From Escherichia phage vB_EcoP_EP32B: a stretch of DNA of 64,000 nt. The stretch lies in sequence record OR544955; one strand, written 5' to 3'. The translations under genes were made by a program, and so were the position numbers. This document shows, piece after piece, positions 5,302 through 47,757 of the stretch. The notes beneath the pieces are model-generated. The model did not search any database, was not told the origin of the DNA, and saw nothing but the letters and a program-made list of their open reading frames with translations. Every line of letters starts with the position of its first letter. Within the stretch, counting starts at the first letter, position 1.

Positions 5302-5876
5302 TATGCAATCTCCATCTCACGAATCAAATCAGTAATAAACGAGTTTATATCTTCTTTTGCAACAATTTTTATTTTACGAAGTTTTTCATTATCTAATACT
5401 GCCGCTTCGTAAGTATCTACTGCAGCTAAAGGTCCTTTATATTGCGGATACTTACGAGCTTCATCACCTTTATCGTACCACACTAAAGGCTCGTCCGGAT
5501 ATGAAACTAAATTGTAAAATTTCTCACGATTTTCATTGATATGATAAAGAACTTGGTCTCCACCGGCATTAGCATATTTCTGAATAGAAGCTTGATACGC
5601 TGCTTCCTGAGATGTAATCCAACCATAATACGGGTCGTAGTTATCGTTACACATCAAAAGAACCCAGTATAATTGAGGGTTGCCATAAATTATGTTTGCT
5701 AGTTCTTCAGGACGCGGAGAGCCTTTAATATAATAAGAACGTAATCTATAATTGGCAGCAACACGCTTAAAGTACTCTTTATAGTTACGAAATATGTCTG
5801 TCATAGGAATAGTAGGTGCATTCTTATTAACTGTTTTAGCACTATATCCTATTGGGTCGAAGAATGTAAATAACAA
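5301..5876 (-). CDS. 53: baseplate wedge protein gp53
   Basis: 191 aa, [33 protein letters not shown], matches recalled T4 gp53; upstream of gene 5. Confidence 0.9.
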
Positions 5877-5903
5877 GATAGTCTCCTTCCAATATGAAAT
5901 TGG

Positions 5904-5911
5904 TATAAATA
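5904..5911 (+). promoter_or_regulatory. T4-type late promoter TATAAATA upstream of gene 4/2 ORF
   Basis: exact TATAAATA about 27 bp before ATG 5938, followed by AGGAGG. Confidence 0.5.
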
Positions 5912-5918
5912 ATAATAC

Positions 5919-5926
5919 TATTTATA
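5919..5926 (-). promoter_or_regulatory. T4-type late promoter TATAAATA (minus strand) upstream of gene 53
   Basis: plus-strand TATTTATA reads TATAAATA on minus strand, about 43 bp upstream of gp53 start; divergent arrangement with the gene 4 promoter. Confidence 0.45.
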
Positions 5927-5937
5927 AGGAGGACAAC

Positions 5938-7134
5938 ATGGCCTACTCTGGTAAATGGGTCCCAAAAAATTTAAAAAAATACCGTGGAGACCATACCAAA
6001 ATAACGTATCGTTCAAACTGGGAAAAATTCTTTTTCGAATGGTTAGATAAAAATCCAGAAATTATTGCATGGGGTAGTGAAACAGCAGTAATTCCATATT
6101 TTTGTAATGCTGAAGGTAAAAAACGTCGATACTATATGGACATATGGATGAAAGATGCATCAGGTCAAGAGTTCTTTGTAGAAATAAAACCAAAGAAAGA
6201 AACTCAACCACCTATTAAGCCTGCAAATCTTACTACCGCAGCAAAGAAACGTTATATGAATGAAATATATACCTGGTCTGTGAACTGTGACAAATGGAAA
6301 GCTGCCTCAGCTATGAGCATATTCCAAATTATATCTGAAGGCGTACAAGCCCCTAAGATTGCTCAGTCTATGAATGAAAGAAAATGGATTGAGATAGGAT
6401 TAGAATACAAGAAAGCTAAAGAGAAAGGAATCACTGCAAAAGCATTTGCAGAATCAAAAGGAATAAAATACTCGTCGTTTACATCTGCAATGTCTAGATA
6501 TGCATCATCTATTAAGACCGCACAGAAAATTGAAACGCTTGAATCTAAACCTAAAAATAAACTCAATAAGCAAGAACGTCAACTTCTGATGATAAACTCG
6601 TTTCGCAGTTCAATACGAGAAAAGATTAGAAATGAAGGCGCAGCAGTAAACAACAAATCATCTAAGTGGTTTGTTGAAACAATTAAGAAAAGTGTAAAAG
6701 GTCATAAAGTAGTCAAGCCTACGCCAGGCAAAATTTATACTTACGTGTATGATGCTAAACATAAAGATACTCTGCCGTATTGGGACAGATATCCTTTGAT
6801 TATTTATTTAGGATTAGGTAAACATAATTTGATGTATGGATTAAACTTGCACTATATCCCACCTAAAGCACGACAACAGTTTCTTGAAGAATTGCTGAAG
6901 CAATATGCTAGCACAACTACTATTACTAATAACACAAAGTTGAAGATAGACTGGAGCAAGGTGAAAGGATTTCAAGGTGCTGACAAAATGATTAAAGCAT
7001 ACCTGCCTGGCCACATTAGAGGAACAATAACAGAAATAGCTCCTAAAGACTGGGCTAACATAATCATGTTACCTACTCAGCAGTTTATGTCAAAAGGAAA
7101 ACGTTTCTCTGCGAATACTGTTTGGAAATCTTAA
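5938..7134 (+). CDS. single 398-codon ORF combining a head completion (gp4-like) N-terminal region and a DNA end protector (gp2-like) C-terminal region
   Basis: ATG 5938 preceded by AGGAGG; [19 protein letters not shown]...; no in-frame stop until 7134; total length close to T4 gp4 (150 aa) plus gp2 (274 aa); internal Met at codon 126 (MSIFQII) leaves 273 codons. Confidence 0.55.
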
Positions 7135-9360: not shown

Positions 9361-9440
9361 AACCTCAAGGAAATAAAATGAAAACATATCAAGAATTTAT
9401 ATATGTTATAGTAGTCCTATCAAAACAAGAGGATAATAAA

Positions 9441-10772: not shown

Positions 10773-11029
10773 GAATTATGTGTTATTATTAATTCATACC
10801 CTCTATTACCAAAGGTGCTCTAAAGTGCCTTTCATAATAGAAAGTTATTTAGGCCCTGTAGCTCAATGGTGCAGTAGCTGCTCTGGAAAACCTGTTCCAA
10901 ATTGCAACAGAAGAACGCGAAGAAGTTACATTATGGATTGAAGATAACGCAGGTCTGAATCTCCAGGACGCGATCTCATTATCCCACAATAGTATCACTG
11001 TTCAAGGCTGGGTATCATCTAGTTATTCT

Positions 11030-12322: not shown

Positions 12323-12372
12323 TTTCACAAAACAGTTTACAAGGTCTGTAGTTGTTGATACTATAGACCTAT
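12323..12372 (+). promoter_or_regulatory. early promoter in inverted repeat (PeSL-like)
   Basis: TTTCACAAAACAGTTTAC, inverted repeat AGGTCTGTAG...CTATAGACCT spanning GATACTATAG. Confidence 0.45.
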
Positions 12373-12402: not shown

Positions 12403-12603
12403 ATGACTACTTTGAATAAACGTTTCGGTAAAGCTAAACCTGGTTGTGCAGCAGAACGTCGTTATGTTTTCGCTCAGTTAGAAGATGTAGAGTATCAGAT
12501 TAATCAAGTTCACATTACTGGTATCGAGCCTATGTGTGGCCTTGAAGCTCTTCGTGAAGTTCGTGATGGGTATCGTCGTGACATCGAAGAAATGTCAAAA
12601 TAA
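12403..12603 (+). CDS. hypothetical protein (66 aa)
   Basis: ORF 12385..12603, start at MTTLNKRFG. Confidence 0.5.
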   Translation: MTTLNKRFGKAKPGCAAERRYVFAQLEDVEYQINQVHITGIEPMCGLEALREVRDGYRRDIEEMSK

Positions 12604-12650
12604 GTGTACAAACTGATAGGACTATGTTATAGTAGTAGTCCTATTAAAAC
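12604..12650 (+). promoter_or_regulatory. early promoter in inverted repeat (PeSL-like)
   Basis: GTGTAC -35 variant, inverted repeat ATAGGACTATGTTATAGTAGTAGTCCTAT, then GAGGAG. Confidence 0.4.
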
Positions 12651-12664
12651 ATGAGGAGAATATT

Positions 12665-12970
12665 ATGAAATTAACAGAAACCAATCGAATTGGTCTTTTA
12701 ACAATACTTGCATCACCTTTTTACGCAACTCTTTCTGTTGCAGTATTACAAAAGGCTTACGATATGGATGGTGTTCCTGGTTTTGTATTCTTATCGCCGT
12801 TTTTGCTATTCGTTGGAGCATTGTTATTATATGCCACGACTGGTTTCGACCATAATGTCTGGGTCAATTATAAACGTAAATTGTCCGAAGAAGAACACGC
12901 AGAAGCTCGTAAAAAAGCTATTGAATCTACCAATCTAGAAAATTTCATTAAAGAATGTCGAGGAAAATAA
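12665..12970 (+). CDS. membrane protein (101 aa, two hydrophobic segments)
   Basis: hydrophobic stretches ILASPFYATLSVAVL and FVFLSPFLLFVGALLLY. Confidence 0.6.
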   Translation: MKLTETNRIGLLTILASPFYATLSVAVLQKAYDMDGVPGFVFLSPFLLFVGALLLYATTGFDHNVWVNYKRKLSEEEHAEARKKAIESTNLENFIKECRGK

Positions 12971-12971
12971 T

Positions 12972-13566
12972 ATGAATAGTTCTAAAGTGTTTAATAGTCA
13001 AGCTCGTGCAGTAGGTGGTTTTGCTCATGCGATTAAAAATGACCAGATTAAAAACGAGCCTATGTTCTTTTGTATTTGATTCACGAGTCCACATGCTGAT
13101 GCCTGGTTGGTATCCTGCTATCCCAGGTTATCACCATGATGACGTACCACGCCCGGATATTCCGGTTGGTCAACATTTTATTACTGCAGGACAACCTGAC
13201 TATGACAATCCTCGCTATTTGTCTGAACATATTCTTGGTCTTGTTAACGCTGATGTGTGTCCTACTCATTTTGCAACAGGAACTGCGGAGTTCAGTCAGA
13301 TTCCTGATGGCGAACTTATCTATCGCCAGTGGCACAAAGAAGTCCTCGAAAAAATCGAAAAAGGCGAACTAGAGAAATGGGAAGCTCCAGACCGTACTCT
13401 TCTTCAGTTTGATTGGCAAACATGGCACACTGGTTCTCGTGCAATTAGTAATGGATGGCGTTGGTTCGGACGTGTATCTCGTAATACAGACCGAGTTAAA
13501 AAGATTACCAATGAAATTCGCGTCAATGCCCAAGTTTATCTGGAATTCCCTATGGAAGGCTGGTAA
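12972..13566 (+). pseudogene. hypothetical gene apparently split by a frameshift
   Basis: ATG 12972 with GAGGAAAA Shine-Dalgarno opens a 34-codon ORF that stops about 13076; the 183-codon ORF 13015..13566 continues in the +1 frame across A5 runs. Confidence 0.4.
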
Positions 13567-13925
13567 TGATTAACAAAACATATTGGTCTAATATTGACGA
13601 CGGCAATGAAGGTATTTCGTACTATTCAGTGGATTGGACAGGATGTCCATCCTACTTAGTGAAACGTATTTGCCAAGAATTTAAAATCGACAAACCAGCA
13701 GGTATTATCGTGAACAGATACATTAATGGATATCAACCTATCGATGAAGTAATACGAACAACTCAAGCTGATCTTGAAAAGTTTTTCAATAAGTGCCAAT
13801 GGATAACAGGATGGATTATATTTGTACCGTCGGTATGGTTTTTTAGTACTAAGGTGAGTTCTTTCGGTTTTGTTGATATTATTGCTATCTTATTAGCATC
13901 TGCTATCATAAGTCATCATTATTAA
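13566..13925 (+). CDS. hypothetical protein with C-terminal transmembrane segment (119 aa)
   Basis: ATGA overlap with upstream ORF; hydrophobic C-terminus. Confidence 0.55.
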   Translation: MINKTYWSNIDDGNEGISYYSVDWTGCPSYLVKRICQEFKIDKPAGIIVNRYINGYQPIDEVIRTTQADLEKFFNKCQWITGWIIFVPSVWFFSTKVSSFGFVDIIAILLASAIISHHY

Positions 13926-14018: not shown

Positions 14019-14255
14019 ATGAGTATAGCAATTTACATTAAATCAGAATCATGTGATAGTTATCTGTACACATACGATAAAGATGTGTCAGAAGAAAAAA
14101 TCAAAGACGACCTTAATACGGATCTTGATATGTTCTGTCCTATTGCAGATTACAAACTTGCGGTCTCTAATAGTGAAAGTCCATCTAAAGAAACGCGCAT
14201 TGAAGAATTTATGTCCGAATTAATGGCCAAATCATGGGACCGAGATGATGAGTAA
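14019..14255 (+). CDS. hypothetical acidic protein (78 aa)
   Basis: ORF 14004..14255; start MSIAIY preceded by AGGAA. Confidence 0.5.
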   Translation: MSIAIYIKSESCDSYLYTYDKDVSEEKIKDDLNTDLDMFCPIADYKLAVSNSESPSKETRIEEFMSELMAKSWDRDDE

Positions 14256-14703
14256 GAAAAATAAAGTGAAAGAACTATCAGCCGGTATTATTTTCCTTAC
14301 CGAAGATAAAGAATTATTCATGGGGCGTGTAACTGGTTCTCGTCCTAAAGGTTCTTTAGCTCATCGCTGGGATATTCCTAAAGGACGTGTCGAGCCCGGT
14401 GAATCTCCTATTGAAGCCGCTATTCGCGAATGCGAAGAAGAAACTGGGTTTACACAATATGACCCTGCCTTCCTGAAAGACCTAGGTGAACATCATTACT
14501 CAGACAATAAGAATATTCATCTGTTCCTATATACCATCCCTGTAGAGCACGAGCAATTCAGAAACAGTGCTTGTAATTCCTATCATACATTCCCAGACGG
14601 ACGACAGATTCCTGAATTTGATGCGTTCGCTTTAATTAAACCTTCTCAATGGGAATATGTGATGGGCAAATCATTATATAAGGTGCTCACTACTATCCTA
14701 TAA
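14245..14703 (+). CDS. nudE: Nudix hydrolase (NudE / e.1-like)
   Basis: Nudix box GRVEPGESPIEAAIRECEEETG; located just upstream of gene e as in T4. Confidence 0.85.
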   Translation: MMSKKNKVKELSAGIIFLTEDKELFMGRVTGSRPKGSLAHRWDIPKGRVEPGESPIEAAIRECEEETGFTQYDPAFLKDLGEHHYSDNKNIHLFLYTIPVEHEQFRNSACNSYHTFPDGRQIPEFDAFALIKPSQWEYVMGKSLYKVLTTIL

Positions 14704-14737
14704 GTAATAAATATCTCCTATAAACGTGGGAGGTATT

Positions 14738-15226
14738 ATGAATATATTTGAAATGCTTCGTAATGACGAAGGTCTTAGACTGACTTTATACAAAGACACT
14801 GAAGGCTTTTGGACGATTGGCATAGGCCACTTGGTAACAAAGAACCCGTCTTTAGCCGTAGCTAAAGCTGAACTTGACAGAATGATCGGTCGTAAATGCA
14901 ACGGTACAATTACCCTTGATGAGGCTGAAAAGCTATTTAATGAAGACGTCGATAAAGCCGTTCGCGGAATCTTGGGTAATGCTAAACTTAAACCGGTATA
15001 TGATTCTTTAGATGCAGTTCGTCGATGTGCATTGGTCAATATGGTCTTCCAAATGGGTGTAGCAGGCGTTGCTGGTTTTACTAATTCTCTTCGTATGCTT
15101 CAACAGAAGCGTTGGGATGAAGCGGCAGTAAATCTAGCCCAATCTAAATGGTACCGTCAGACACCTAATCGAGCGAAACGCGTAATCTCAACATTTAAAA
15201 CAGGAACTTGGAAAGCGTATATATGA
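14738..15226 (+). CDS. e: lysozyme (endolysin), gene e
   Basis: 162 aa [32 protein letters not shown]; about 80% identical to T4 lysozyme as recalled. Confidence 0.95.
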
Positions 15227-15976: not shown

Positions 15977-16068
15977 GGAACAAAATGAAAACTCCAACCT
16001 GTAATAATGTCGAGCCCAAGTGCGGTAATGGGTTGCCACGGAATGGCCCAACATAAAAGAGAAACTAA

Positions 16069-19760: not shown

Positions 19761-19969
19761 ATATACATTATCCACATCCATATGACCCAAAGAATAAGGC
19801 AGTAATTATTCGTCAATGGGAACGCATTTGCCGTACTAAATGCCCAATTAATAGTCCACATGATGTAGATAAAGACTATATTGGAACATTCGTTGAATAT
19901 ACCTTTATTGATAAGAAAGGTCGTAAACAACATGTAGAAGAATATTGCTTAAAGGTTACATGGTTATGA
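19757..19969 (+). CDS. hypothetical protein (70 aa)
   Basis: ORF 19742..19969, start at MNIHYPHPYD. Confidence 0.45.
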   Translation: MNIHYPHPYDPKNKAVIIRQWERICRTKCPINSPHDVDKDYIGTFVEYTFIDKKGRKQHVEEYCLKVTWL

Positions 19970-20496
19970 GTCTTACTGCCGCCCATAACTATAAAGAACG
20001 TGGCATGGGTGTATTAGTTCTTAAACCGGCTATTGATACTCGCGATTCAAAAGGTGAAATAGTCTCTCGTATTGGTATTCGTCAGGACGCCAATATAATT
20101 ACAAAAGACATGGATATCTTTGAATTCTATAAATGGGCTGCAGCACAAAAGGATATTCATTGTGTATTTGTTGACGAAGCTCAGTTCTTAACTACTGAAA
20201 AGGTGTATCAACTTAGTCGTATTGTTGACGTATACAATGTGCCGGTAATGGCATATGGACTACGAACAGATTTTAAAGGTAATCTATTTGAAGGTTCTCA
20301 AGCATTAATGGCTATTGCCGATAAGCTTGTTGAACTTAAAGGTGTCTGTCATTGCGGTAAAAAGGCCACAATGGTAGCTAGAGTCACGGAAGACGGACTT
20401 CCAATTACAGATGGCAGTCAAATTGAAATTGGTGATACTGATAGATATGTGTCATTATGCCGGAAGCATTGGAATGATTTGACAGGGTTGTTATAA
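19960..20496 (+). CDS. tk: thymidine kinase homolog lacking the N-terminal P-loop (probable remnant)
   Basis: MVMSLTAAHNYKERGMGVLVLKPAIDTRD... aligns with TK1-family Tk from just after the GKS Walker A; in-frame stop 19924-19926 upstream. Confidence 0.7.
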   Translation: MVMSLTAAHNYKERGMGVLVLKPAIDTRDSKGEIVSRIGIRQDANIITKDMDIFEFYKWAAAQKDIHCVFVDEAQFLTTEKVYQLSRIVDVYNVPVMAYGLRTDFKGNLFEGSQALMAIADKLVELKGVCHCGKKATMVARVTEDGLPITDGSQIEIGDTDRYVSLCRKHWNDLTGLL

Positions 20497-40015: not shown

Positions 40016-41578
40016 ATGAAATCATTTAAATTAAATCGTGTTCGTTATCAAAACATCATGTCAGTAGGTGGGAATCCTATTGATATCCAATTAGATAAAG
40101 TCCAAAAGACATTAATCACTGGTAAAAATGGCGGTGGTAAATCTACGATGTTAGAAGCCATTACTTTCGGACTTTTCGGTAAACCATTTCGTGATGTTAA
40201 GAAAGGACAAATCATTAATAGCATGAACAAGAAAGAGCTCTTAGTTGAGCTTTGGATGGAATTCGATGATAAAAAATACTTCATTAAACGTGGCCAAAAG
40301 CCCAATATTTTCGAAATCTCCGTTGACGGTGTTCGTCTCGATGAATCTGCCAGCAGTCGTGACTTCCAAGAAGAATTTGAACGTAGCATCGGAATGTCAT
40401 ACGCGTCTTTTAAACAAATCGTTGTGCTTGGGACGGCAGGGTATACCCCTTTCATGGCTCTTAGCACCCCTGCTCGTAGAAAGCTTGTTGAAGACTTATT
40501 AGAAGTTGGCACACTCGCTGAAATGGATAAAATCAATAAGTCTCAAGTTCGCGAACTTAATTCTCAGGGACAAGTTCTTGATGCCAAGAAAGATGGTATT
40601 ATCCAACAAATTAAGATTTATAACGAGAATATCGAACGTCAAAAGAAATTATCTGGTGATAATGTAGCGCGTCTACAGAATATGTATGACGACCTAGCCA
40701 AAGAAGCTCGGTCATTAAAAGCAGAAATCGAAGAAGCTAATGAGCGACTACTTAATATCGTTCTTGATGAAGACCCTACTGAGGCATTCAACAAGATAGG
40801 ACAAGAAGCATTCTTGATTAAATCTAAAATTGACTCATATAACAAAGTTATTAAGATGTATCATGATGGCGGTACATGTCCTACTTGTGCATCACAGTTG
40901 CACCAGGGTGACCCTATTGTCTCTAAGATTACCGATAAGCTTCATGAATGTAATCACTCATTCGAGCAACTTACATGTCACAGAGATAATCTGAGTGTCC
41001 TAGTGGACGAATATAGAGCTAATGTCAAGACTAAACAGGACCTTGCATCTGATATTCGTACCAAGAAACAAGCAATGATTGCCACTATTGATAAAGCTAA
41101 GAAAGTTAAAGCTGCAATAGAACAAGCCTCAGCAGAATTTATCGACCATGCCGATGAGATAGCTTTGCTTCAAAAAGAACTTGATAAAATCATTAAAACA
41201 AAATCGGATATCGTTCTTGAAAAATACCATCGTGGTATTATCACAGATATGTTAAAAGATTCTGGTATTAAAGGTGCTATCATTAAAAAATATGTGCCTC
41301 TGTTCAACAAGCAGATTAACCATTATCTTAAAATCATGGAAGCTGATTACGTGTTTTCTATTGACGAAGAATTCAATGAATCTATAAAATCACGTGGCCG
41401 TGAAGAGTTCAGTTATGCTTCATTTAGTCAAGGCGAAAAAGCGCGTATCGATATCGCATTGTTGTTTACATGGCGAGATATTGCTGAAAAGGTCTCTGGT
41501 GTTAAAATCAACACAACGTGTTCATTATTTCTCACAGAGACCATGACCCACAAGCTTATGGACAACATCTTCAAATGA
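40016..41578 (+). CDS. 46: recombination ATPase subunit gp46 (Rad50/SbcC-like)
   Basis: 520 aa; Walker A GKNGGGKST, long coiled-coil, CPTC zinc hook. Confidence 0.9.
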   Translation: MKSFKLNRVRYQNIMSVGGNPIDIQLDKVQKTLITGKNGGGKSTMLEAITFGLFGKPFRDVKKGQIINSMNKKELLVELWMEFDDKKYFIKRGQKPNIFEISVDGVRLDESASSRDFQEEFERSIGMSYASFKQIVVLGTAGYTPFMALSTPARRKLVEDLLEVGTLAEMDKINKSQVRELNSQGQVLDAKKDGIIQQIKIYNENIERQKKLSGDNVARLQNMYDDLAKEARSLKAEIEEANERLLNIVLDEDPTEAFNKIGQEAFLIKSKIDSYNKVIKMYHDGGTCPTCASQLHQGDPIVSKITDKLHECNHSFEQLTCHRDNLSVLVDEYRANVKTKQDLASDIRTKKQAMIATIDKAKKVKAAIEQASAEFIDHADEIALLQKELDKIIKTKSDIVLEKYHRGIITDMLKDSGIKGAIIKKYVPLFNKQINHYLKIMEADYVFSIDEEFNESIKSRGREEFSYASFSQGEKARIDIALLFTWRDIAEKVSGVKINTTCSLFLTETMTHKLMDNIFK

Positions 41579-45072: not shown

Positions 45073-47757
45073 ATGAAAGAATTTTACTTAACGGTTGAAC
45101 AGATTGGTGATTCAATTTTTGAACGTTACATCGATTCTAATGGCCGTGAACGTACTCGTGAAGTAGAATATAAACCATCACTGTTTGCTCATTGTCCAGA
45201 AAGTCAGGCTACGAAATATTTCGATATCTACGGTAAGCCGTGTACTCGTAAGTTGTTCGCTAATATGCGTGATGCCTCCCAATGGATTAAACGTATGGAA
45301 GATATCGGACTTGAAGCACTTGGCATGGACGATTTCAAATTGGCGTATTTGTCTGACACTTATAACTATGAAATCAAATACGACCATACAAAAATTCGTG
45401 TGGCTAACTTCGACATCGAAGTAACATCTCCGGACGGGTTCCCTGAGCCGTCACAAGCAAAACATCCGATTGATGCTATCACCCATTATGACTCAATTGA
45501 CGACAGGTTCTACGTATTTGATCTATTGAATTCTCCATATGGTAATGTAGAAGAATGGTCTATCGAAATTGCAGCTAAGCTTCAAGAACAAGGTGGTGAT
45601 GAAGTTCCATCCGAAATTATCGATAAAATCATTTATATGCCGTTCGATAACGAAAAAGAATTGTTGATGGAATATCTCAACTTCTGGCAACAGAAAACTC
45701 CTGTCATTTTGACTGGATGGAACGTTGAGTCATTTGATATTCCATATGTGTATAACCGAATCAAGAATATTTTTGGCGAATCTACTGCGAAACGTTTATC
45801 ACCACATCGTAAAACTCGTGTTAAAGTTATCGAAAACATGTATGGTTCTCGTGAAATCATTACATTGTTCGGTATCTCTGTTCTTGATTATATTGACCTT
45901 TACAAAAAATTCTCTTTTACCAATCAACCGTCGTATTCTCTGGATTACATTTCAGAATTTGAATTGAACGTTGGTAAACTGAAATACGACGGTCCTATTT
46001 CTAAACTTCGTTATAACATCATCGACGTATATCGTGTATTGCAAATTGATGCTAAACGCCAGTTCATTAACTTGAGTTTGGACATGGGTTATTATGCTAA
46101 GATACAGATTCAATCTGTGTTTAGCCCAATTAAAACATGGGATGCTATTATTTTTAATAGCCTTAAAGAACAAAACAAGGTGATTCCACAAGGTCGTTCG
46201 CATCCAGTTCAACCTTACCCGGGTGCTTTTGTTAAGGAACCTATTCCAAATCGATACAAATATGTAATGAGTTTCGACCTTACATCTCTGTATCCAAGTA
46301 TTATTCGCCAAGTGAATATTAGCCCGGAAACAATAGCAGGAACGTTTAAAGTAGCTCCACTGCATGATTATATTAACGCAATCGCTGAACGTCCTTCAGA
46401 TGTGTACAGTTGCTCTCCTAACGGCATGATGTATTATAAAGACCGTGACGGTGTTGTTCCAACTGAAATCACTAAGGTCTTTAATCAACGTAAAGAACAT
46501 AAAGGTTATATGCTTGCAGCTCAACGTAATGGTGAAATAATTAAAGAGGCATTGCATAATCCTAATCTTTCTGTTGACGAACCATTAGATGTTGATTATC
46601 GTTTCGACTTCAGCGATGAGATTAAAGAAAAGATTAAAAAGTTGTCTGCTAAATCTCTTAATGAAATGTTGTTTAGAGCTCAACGTACTGAAGTTGCAGG
46701 TATGACTGCACAGATTAACCGTAAATTGCTTATCAACTCACTTTATGGTGCACTTGGAAACGTTTGGTTCCGTTATTATGATTTGCGTAATGCTACTGCA
46801 ATCACAACATTCGGACAAATGGCTTTACAGTGGATTGAACGTAAAGTTAATGAATATCTGAATGAAGTTTGCGGTACAGAAGGTGAAGCTTTCGTTCTTT
46901 ATGGTGATACAGACTCTATTTACGTATCTGCTGATAAAATTATCGATAAGGTTGGTGAATCTAAATTCCGTGATACCAACCATTGGGTAGACTTCTTAGA
47001 TAAGTTCGCTCGTGAACGTATGGAACCTGCTATTGATAGAGGTTTCCGTGAAATGTGCGAATACATGAATAATAAGCAACATTTGATGTTCATGGACCGA
47101 GAAGCTATCGCTGGTCCTCCGCTCGGTTCTAAAGGTATTGGTGGATTTTGGACTGGTAAGAAACGTTATGCATTAAACGTGTGGGATATGGAAGGTACTC
47201 GTTACGCTGAGCCTAAACTCAAAATCATGGGTCTAGAGACTCAGAAATCTTCGACACCTAAAGCAGTACAGAAAGCTCTTAAAGAATGTATTCGTCGTAT
47301 GCTTCAAGAAGGTGAAGAATCATTACAAGAATATTTTAAAGAGTTTGAAAAAGAATTCCGTCAATTGAATTATATTAGCATCGCGTCGGTATCTTCTGCG
47401 AATAACATTGCTAAATATGATGTCGGTGGATTCCCTGGCCCCAAATGTCCGTTCCATATTCGTGGAATTCTGACATATAACCGAGCTATCAAAGGTAATA
47501 TCGATGCACCGCAAGTTGTAGAAGGTGAAAAAGTATATGTTCTGCCTTTACGTGAAGGAAACCCATTCGGTGATAAATGTATCGCATGGCCTTCTGGTAC
47601 GGAAATCACTGATTTAATCAAAGATGATGTACTTCATTGGATGGACTACACGGTTCTCCTTGAGAAGACATTTATTAAACCACTTGAAGGATTCACATCA
47701 GCAGCTAAACTCGATTACGAGAAGAAAGCATCTCTGTTCGATATGTTTGATTTTTGA
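45073..47757 (+). CDS. 43: DNA polymerase gp43 (family B)
   Basis: 894 aa; exonuclease motif FDIEV, polymerase motifs DxxSLYPS and YGDTDS. Confidence 0.95.
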   Translation: MKEFYLTVEQIGDSIFERYIDSNGRERTREVEYKPSLFAHCPESQATKYFDIYGKPCTRKLFANMRDASQWIKRMEDIGLEALGMDDFKLAYLSDTYNYEIKYDHTKIRVANFDIEVTSPDGFPEPSQAKHPIDAITHYDSIDDRFYVFDLLNSPYGNVEEWSIEIAAKLQEQGGDEVPSEIIDKIIYMPFDNEKELLMEYLNFWQQKTPVILTGWNVESFDIPYVYNRIKNIFGESTAKRLSPHRKTRVKVIENMYGSREIITLFGISVLDYIDLYKKFSFTNQPSYSLDYISEFELNVGKLKYDGPISKLRYNIIDVYRVLQIDAKRQFINLSLDMGYYAKIQIQSVFSPIKTWDAIIFNSLKEQNKVIPQGRSHPVQPYPGAFVKEPIPNRYKYVMSFDLTSLYPSIIRQVNISPETIAGTFKVAPLHDYINAIAERPSDVYSCSPNGMMYYKDRDGVVPTEITKVFNQRKEHKGYMLAAQRNGEIIKEALHNPNLSVDEPLDVDYRFDFSDEIKEKIKKLSAKSLNEMLFRAQRTEVAGMTAQINRKLLINSLYGALGNVWFRYYDLRNATAITTFGQMALQWIERKVNEYLNEVCGTEGEAFVLYGDTDSIYVSADKIIDKVGESKFRDTNHWVDFLDKFARERMEPAIDRGFREMCEYMNNKQHLMFMDREAIAGPPLGSKGIGGFWTGKKRYALNVWDMEGTRYAEPKLKIMGLETQKSSTPKAVQKALKECIRRMLQEGEESLQEYFKEFEKEFRQLNYISIASVSSANNIAKYDVGGFPGPKCPFHIRGILTYNRAIKGNIDAPQVVEGEKVYVLPLREGNPFGDKCIAWPSGTEITDLIKDDVLHWMDYTVLLEKTFIKPLEGFTSAAKLDYEKKASLFDMFDF

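Follow-up and report, generated by a model that had tools for sequence, protein, structure and literature searches.

The RB69ORF132c ortholog of Escherichia phage vB_EcoP_EP32B is split over two frames by a 92-nt gap that is probably an artefact of the sequence record

The window considered here is the 64,000-nt stretch of record OR544955 from Escherichia phage vB_EcoP_EP32B (EP32B), an RB69-like Mosigvirus, and the feature under study is a pair of overlapping reading frames at 12972-13566. The flanking genes mark a T4-like phage: they code for the NudE Nudix hydrolase, the lysozyme e and a membrane protein like e.2. The RB69ORF132c locus, to which the two frames correspond, has a gene for an ORF133c-like membrane protein on one side and e.2 on the other, with nudE and e following downstream (Table 1). 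The upstream frame is preceded by a Shine-Dalgarno-like motif that is unchanged in SA79RD, EP32a and phage 55, the annotation of the last of these having a ribosome-binding site (RBS) at this very position. Its first 32 codons are orthologous by alignment to the start of the relatives' gene (nt 1-98 of 687), followed by the out-of-frame residues F-C-I and a TGA. The +1 frame is open from a GTG at 13015 to a stop codon at 13564-13566 (183 aa), and the corresponding GenBank CDS, 13027-13566, was begun at an adventitious ATG, its product WPK28995.1 (179 aa) being equal to the translation from 13027. A sequence-only reading of this DNA had described a well-initiated ORF with an ATG at 12972, GAGGAAAA and a 4-nt spacer, a +1 frame continuing for 183 codons, and two A5 runs within the overlap, all of which are read directly from the letters, with GAGGAAAA at 12960-12967 and the A5 runs at 13035-13039 and 13051-13055; it also had the upstream ORF stopping early, which is right, albeit after 34 codons where there are 35 sense codons.

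Table 1. Features of the split gene and its neighbourhood, and reference-relative gaps along the window
Feature	Position	Strand	Size	Remarks
Early-promoter-like sites	12336-12364, 12605-12633
Shine-Dalgarno-like GAGGAAAA	12960..12967	+		4 nt before the authentic start of the RB69ORF132c ortholog; read from sequence
5' gene fragment	12972..13079	+		ATG 12972, 35 sense codons and TGA 13077-13079
Two A5 runs	13035-13039, 13051-13055	+		within the frame overlap; RB69/HY126-type allele
Gap junction ...CCTATGTTCTT^TTGTATTTGATTC...	13069..13070	+		T run makes the placement ambiguous by 1-2 nt
3' gene part, +1 frame	13072..13566	+		residues 65-228 and stop codon
e.2-like membrane-protein gene	13566..13925	+	119 aa	163 aa in orthologs; 35-nt gap 13913^13914
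nudE (Nudix hydrolase)	14245-14703
e (T4-type lysozyme)	14726-15226
Gap	6312^6313	+	77 nt	gene 4 C-terminus / gene 2 start
Gap	9402		286-614 nt	ipI
Gap	10635		24 nt
Gap	10870		about 4.3-5.3 kb	begins inside tRNA-Met
Gap	13070 (13069^13070)	+	92 nt	RB69ORF132c ortholog
Gap	13913 (13913^13914)	+	35 nt	e.2
Gap	15991		345-1054 nt
Gap	16034		29 nt
Gap	17577^17578	+	146-167 nt	vs.4-like gene; ends directly before the next gene's RBS
Gap	19972		446 nt	tk
Gap	28076^28077	+	133 nt	nrdC.5-like gene
Gap	30239		216 nt
Gap	34225		298 nt
Gap	34913		28 nt
Gap	39862		14 nt
Gap	41514^41515	+	88 nt	gene 46
Gap	46010^46011	+	27 nt, in frame	DNA polymerase gp43
Gap	48093		160 nt	kpsF-like gene
Gap	59617		24 nt
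Gap	60155		12 nt
Gap	62287		594 nt
Gap	62460		93 nt

A megablast search with the interval 12600-13700 recovered 303 phage records, nearly all from Mosigvirus (RB69-like), and 39 of the 40 matches listed align in two pieces, with a subject span of about 1190 nt per 1101 nt of query. In SA79RD, phage 55, RB69, HY126 and mar005P1 the locus is a single 687-nt CDS coding for 228 aa, the RB69 copy being RB69ORF132c (NP_861822.1). Base-level alignments equate ortholog nt 1-98 with window positions 12972-13069 and ortholog nt 191-687 with 13070-13566; ortholog nt 99-190 (residues about 33-64), exactly 92 nt, are absent from the window, and since 92 is 3x30+2, the 3' part (495 nt) is shifted to the +1 frame. 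This block is the sole length difference of the gene relative to its orthologs, the retained 595 nt being 97-99% identical to them, and the microhomology at the junction amounts to at most 2 nt. The +1-frame ORF shows 98-99% identity to residues 65-228 of a family with 1290 homologs, and the frame-0 ORF from 12972 is residues 1-32 of the same protein: this match of both frames to one protein is far beyond chance, and we are dealing with one gene split over two frames. The earlier description of a single interrupted early gene is thereby borne out, as no two separate genes were found at this place in the ortholog comparison. Among the 120 best clusters of homologous proteins, 119 are of full length (220-241 aa) and align over the entire query, and the only one that does not contains the EP32a and EP32B fragments. 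The 27-mer across the junction 13069^13070 had no match in IMG/VR, the JGI metagenomes, the GTDB genomes or E. coli genomes.

Over its full length the intact ortholog matches PHROG 1843, a family of unassigned function, with an E value of 1e-95. About 1300 homologs, of about 228 aa, occur in T4-like phages of Escherichia, Shigella, Klebsiella, Citrobacter, Serratia, Erwinia and Aeromonas, one of them carrying the title 'Phytanoyl-CoA dioxygenase family protein' in UniRef. The protein had no match at E<=1 among Pfam-A and NCBIfam families (including PhyH and 2OG-FeII_Oxy), none in PADLOC and no significant one in a sequence search of the PDB, while a literature search on ORF132c returned only an unrelated gene of Aeh1. 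From residue 65 onward there is hardly any variation between phages of six host genera, the variable part being residues 10-64; in an alignment of 40 homologs H85, H86, D87, D88, H183, R194 and R198 never vary and S200 hardly ever does. An AlphaFold2 model of the intact protein (pLDDT 89.5, pTM 0.86) has a double-stranded beta-helix fold. The closest known enzymes are PhyH-like Fe(II)/2-oxoglutarate (2OG) dioxygenases, namely EasH (4nao), the ectoine hydroxylase EctD (4nmi), proline hydroxylase H11 (7dzz) and human PhyH (2a1x), with sequence identity of 9-15% to solved enzymes; Foldseek gave weaker matches on the same theme. At 228 aa the phage protein is shorter than the solved PhyH-like enzymes (245-290 aa). 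On the strength of this modelled fold the intact gene is predicted to encode a PhyH-like Fe(II)/2OG oxygenase of unspecified substrate, in which the conserved histidines and aspartate would supply the catalytic triad and confer the corresponding activity. The HHDD, H183 and RxS motifs are all present in the 3' part that EP32B retains (13072..13566). The missing residues, about 33-64, form a strand and three helices at high model confidence and include eight invariant positions; if the deletion were real, the model suggests a product that would in all likelihood lack activity.

The gap at 13069^13070 is one of many. A local blastn comparison of the window with O157 typing phage 3, mar005P1, SA79RD and EP32a uncovered about 22 reference-relative gaps in 64 kb, counted from a length of 12 nt upward and reaching about 5 kb, and most of them have a length that is not divisible by three. 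Insertions specific to the window measure 15 nt at most, relative to typing phage 3, and otherwise the window holds no novel sequence; intact relatives differ from one another by kilobase replacements in both directions. The 35-nt gap in the neighbouring e.2-like gene again causes a frameshift, and the segment lost there is a locally divergent, Gly-rich transmembrane stretch. Microhomology-mediated deletion was considered as a source of the gaps in the window and rejected, as their junctions have microhomology of only 0-2 nt; base-composition bias was likewise set aside, as the G+C content of the lost segments (29-46%) shows no clear departure from the overall 37.5%.

Several of the gaps at 9402, 15991, 17577, 19972, 30239 and 34225 begin a few codons past a start codon or end before the next RBS or ATG, e.g. 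ATGAAAACATATCAAGAATTTATAT^ in ipI and ^AGGAAAAATACTAATG before vs.3; such gaps at gene boundaries lie in conserved DNA or take out whole small genes. Some of the larger ones, like those at ipI and in the tRNA region, may be genuine differences in gene content. In the tRNA region the tRNA-Met gene (10850-10871) is cut after about 20 nt, and about 4.3-5.3 kb of DNA found in the relatives after 10870, including tRNA-Arg and e.3-e.6-like genes, is absent. ARAGORN accordingly finds no tRNA gene in the window, where relatives have two, and the published absence of tRNA genes from EP32b is due to the region missing at 10870.

Genes with known roles in phage growth are among those hit. Gene 46, which codes for the Rad50-like recombination ATPase, is represented by an ORF at 40016-41578 on the plus strand with 520 aa in place of 562, and the truncated gp46 (40016-41575) is exactly WPK29061.1 of EP32B; the 'LILDEVFDG…' segment with the Walker B motif and D-loop is gone and the frame is shifted, i.e. 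the same class of event as in the RB69ORF132c ortholog. The head-completion gene 4 is likewise affected: the 25 codons at its 3' end are missing and what remains runs in frame into the start codon of gene 2, which codes for the DNA end protector, giving a single ORF at 5794-7134 with the fusion junction at 6312. Among the best 25 of 145 full-coverage Mosigvirus records this gp4/gp2 gap occurs only in the window, and the DNA lost there is conserved, not hypervariable. The DNA polymerase gp43 (45073-47757) has 894 aa against 903, nine being missing at about residues 313-321, and this gap falls in DNA identical among the references. The tk ORF (19945-20496) is without its N-terminal P-loop segment; through a 446-nt gap, about codon 20 of tk here follows in frame on the two initial codons of a small ORF upstream, and tk.2-like ORFs are lost as well. 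Genes 46 and 4 are essential by established T4 genetics, a gp46 defect in T4 resulting in a lethal DNA-arrest phenotype. A phage that plates with an efficiency (EOP) of 1 cannot plausibly carry all these lesions, and the breakage of essential genes in a viable, plaque-purified phage points to an error of assembly or finishing.

EP32a and EP32b were isolated on one O157:H7 host, J32, went through three plaque purifications, and were viable with an EOP of 1 on that host (PMC11657129). NEBNext FS served for library preparation, sequencing was on a NextSeq (2x150, 100 Mb per sample), and the assembly is given as 'de novo' with SPAdes 3.13.0, without a contig count, coverage or finishing step; EP32b is described as having 156,698 bp and no tRNA genes, and accessions OR544954-6 are cited (PMC11657129). 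The genomes of relatives measure about 168-170 kb, against 156.7 kb for EP32B. The name vB_EcoP denotes a podovirus morphology, reported with a 'short tail 60 nm', whereas the genome is that of a T4-like myovirus (PMC11657129); this mismatch fits a mixed or mislabelled preparation. The genus and family names are swapped in the abstract of the same paper (PMC11657129).

The record of the sister phage EP32a (OR544954) has gaps at four of the same loci, namely ORF132c, vs.4, nrdC.5 and gene 46, with ends staggered by 1-23 nt relative to those in the window. At ORF132c its gap measures 86 nt and has breakpoints unlike the window's; the gene 46 gap, of 89 nt, is one nucleotide off, with the gene annotated as two CDSs; at vs.4 the left end is shared and the right end is 23 nt away; and at nrdC.5 the gap is 129 nt long and offset by about 10 nt. 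Roughly 140-300 Mosigvirus records match these loci, and no such gap was seen in the others among the matches listed, of which 39 of 40, 60 of 60 and 24 of 25 are intact. The EP32a junction in ORF132c can be read as a join at the 6-nt repeat TGTAGT between two alleles, which is compatible also with a genuine microhomology-mediated deletion in EP32a. In the same record vs.3 is gapped too, only ATGGCT…AGAGTAG remaining, and the CDSs of gp53, gp6 and gp4 have odd lengths, truncated products being found in NCBI nr.

Many of the gaps coincide with polymorphic patches. With a third reference added and the count taken per gap, two intact references differ at 20% or more of the positions for ten of 18 gaps (P<0.0002), compared to 0.67 ± 0.80 gaps (maximum 7) in 5000 trials of random placement with the same lengths; an earlier pooled version with two references only was not significant (P=0.24). 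The other eight, e.g. gp4/gp2, tk and gp43, lie in conserved DNA. In the RB69ORF132c ortholog the missing 92 nt coincide almost exactly with the sole hypervariable stretch of the gene: in columns 99-195 the alleles of RB69, HY126/SA79RD and mar005P1 all differ, and conservation over the other ~600 nt is 95% or more. The limits of the gap are the outermost divergent nucleotides of this patch, and base-level alignment shows the same for gene 46, where the patch is biallelic (a typing-phage-3 type versus a PHB12/SA79RD/mar009P5 type). The Walker B patch of gene 46 is itself a notable natural polymorphism of intact Mosigviruses, with sharp bounds and about 60% identity inside an otherwise conserved gene. 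In the region of the vs.4 gap, intact references share 54-58% identity as against 98% in the flanks. Gap ends that sit at the limits of divergence between alleles argue against deletion within one genome, which would have no cause to follow those limits.

We consider it likely that the 92-nt gap is an assembly or finishing artefact in OR544955, such that the block would be missing from the record rather than from the phage. This reading is favoured because EP32a, from the same study, host, run and assembler, has near-coincident yet staggered gaps, and because the gaps are all losses, without novel sequence and without microhomology. As to the computational cause, locally divergent stretches might have been dropped during short-read assembly or finishing and their flanks joined, with the hypervariable patches being what tripped the assembly. 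The trigger could have been more than one allele in the read set, e.g. from the sister phage EP32a out of the same sample, or a stitching of contigs via local alignment to a reference at some step of the pipeline; poorly covered stretches may have been lost in a like manner. Allele divergence does not explain the eight gaps in conserved DNA. Furthermore, a 43-nt island (15991-16034) is kept between two gaps and is shorter than the largest default k-mer of SPAdes, for which reason a simple end-to-end joining of contigs fails as an account of every case. More than one mechanism, coverage drop-outs for instance, may thus lie behind the gaps.

The principal alternative is that the 92 bp were really deleted in EP32B, leaving the oxygenase-like gene as a recent pseudogene, or as a source of a product shortened at its N-terminus and translated from ATG 13027, which AGGTGG precedes by 8 nt, or from ATG 13093 or 13099. 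The deposited sequence does show the loss and the frame shift relative to intact orthologs, and the early genes of this region are non-essential, T-even genomes varying there by small indels. The gene is moreover disrupted in another isolate: the OLB35 ortholog (MH992122) is full length in its DNA and has TGG>TAG at codon 41, within the hypervariable patch, its annotation consisting of a 40-aa and a 157-aa ORF. This nonsense codon indicates that the gene is probably dispensable, and a real deletion in it would therefore be tolerated. The 164 codons downstream of the gap are undecayed, retaining 98-99% identity to orthologs, which is compatible with either a very recent event or an artefact. 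The deletion has to be reconciled, however, with a signature shared with gaps that are impossible in a viable phage (the gp46 Walker B loss and the gp4-gp2 fusion), with gap limits that are the limits of inter-allele divergence, with the near-coincident yet non-identical gap in EP32a, with the lack of both microhomology and downstream decay, and with a junction present in no other public sequence searched; on balance we deem it unlikely. The sequence-only reading had posed the choice as one between a pseudogene and a homopolymer indel: an error in the sequence record is indeed the best explanation, though one of another kind than a homopolymer error, and a pseudogene is a possible but not the best one. 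The indel in question, a 1-nt sequencing error or slippage in an A5 run, was suggested by the two runs within the frame overlap; it is refuted by the alignment, in which columns 64-84, spanning both runs, match intact RB69 and HY126 base for base and gap-free, with the same A runs, the frame change coming from the 92-nt block that sits 15 nt downstream of the second run. We accord it a negligible probability.

If the gaps as a set were real, two sister Mosigviruses on the same O157:H7 host would have deleted the same patches (ORF132c, vs.4, nrdC.5 and the gp46 Walker B segment), a very improbable circumstance; it would mean that these patches are under strong host-imposed selection or are targets of site-directed deletion, and that the canonical ATPase function of gp46 is dispensable to the phage. 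Independent loss of the hypervariable patches by both phages, e.g. through selection by a defence system of the shared host, would account for four loci being gapped in both genomes with differing end points, and an arms race could be behind the patches, in which the variation of otherwise conserved genes is highest. Against this stand the lethality of the frameshifting gp46 Walker B loss expected from T4 genetics, the simpler common cause offered by a shared laboratory, run and pipeline, and the intact state of the other Mosigvirus records among the matches listed; we regard such parallel loss as extremely improbable. A programmed +1 ribosomal frameshift or translational bypass joining the two frames is conceivable from the good RBS on the upstream frame and the long downstream frame, and the gene 60 bypass provides a precedent for recoding in T4. 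The two-frame layout is nonetheless confined to the EP32B record and EP32a, all other orthologs being single ORFs, and no slippery or stimulatory element is conserved: reading of the sequence reveals no X_XXY_YYZ heptamer in frame at the junction and no SD-like stimulator upstream of the shift site that would be needed (...TTC TTT TGT ATT TGA). Even the joined product would still be without 31 residues that include the eight invariant positions, and recoding here has next to no probability.

The split early gene implies no new biology and ought to be left out of any tally of pseudogenes, recoding sites or decaying genes. On the favoured reading of a record artefact, the broader consequence is that OR544955 and OR544954 contain many internal gaps giving false truncated proteins, e.g. 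WPK28995.1, WPK29061.1, WPK28783.1 and the split gp46 of EP32a, which are already spreading into protein databases; both EP32B and EP32a need re-finishing, and their truncated proteins are best treated as artefacts. There are two by-products of the analysis: the 'hypothetical' family RB69ORF132c/PHROG 1843 becomes assignable, by its modelled structure, to the PhyH-like Fe(II)/2OG dioxygenase fold, and otherwise conserved Mosigvirus genes are seen to hold short hypervariable patches with sharp limits, one of them being the Walker B segment of gp46.

Compared with the other members of its own family, the window copy of RB69ORF132c (PHROG 1843) occupies the same locus and differs in being without nt 99-190 and out of frame, where the others have about 228 aa. 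Its resemblance to prfB-type +1 frameshifting and to the gene 60 bypass of T4 consists in two overlapping frames in a T4-like phage; it is unlike them in that the split is unconserved, no signal accompanies it and a 92-nt coding block is absent. Short-read assembly of phage genomes that are mixed, or stitched along a reference, is known to produce a class of artefact in which variant regions are dropped or collapsed. From this class the EP32B record departs in its eight gaps in conserved DNA and its retained 43-nt island, while it agrees with it in showing losses only, no microhomology, a location in polymorphic patches, recurrence in a sister assembly and the breakage of essential genes.
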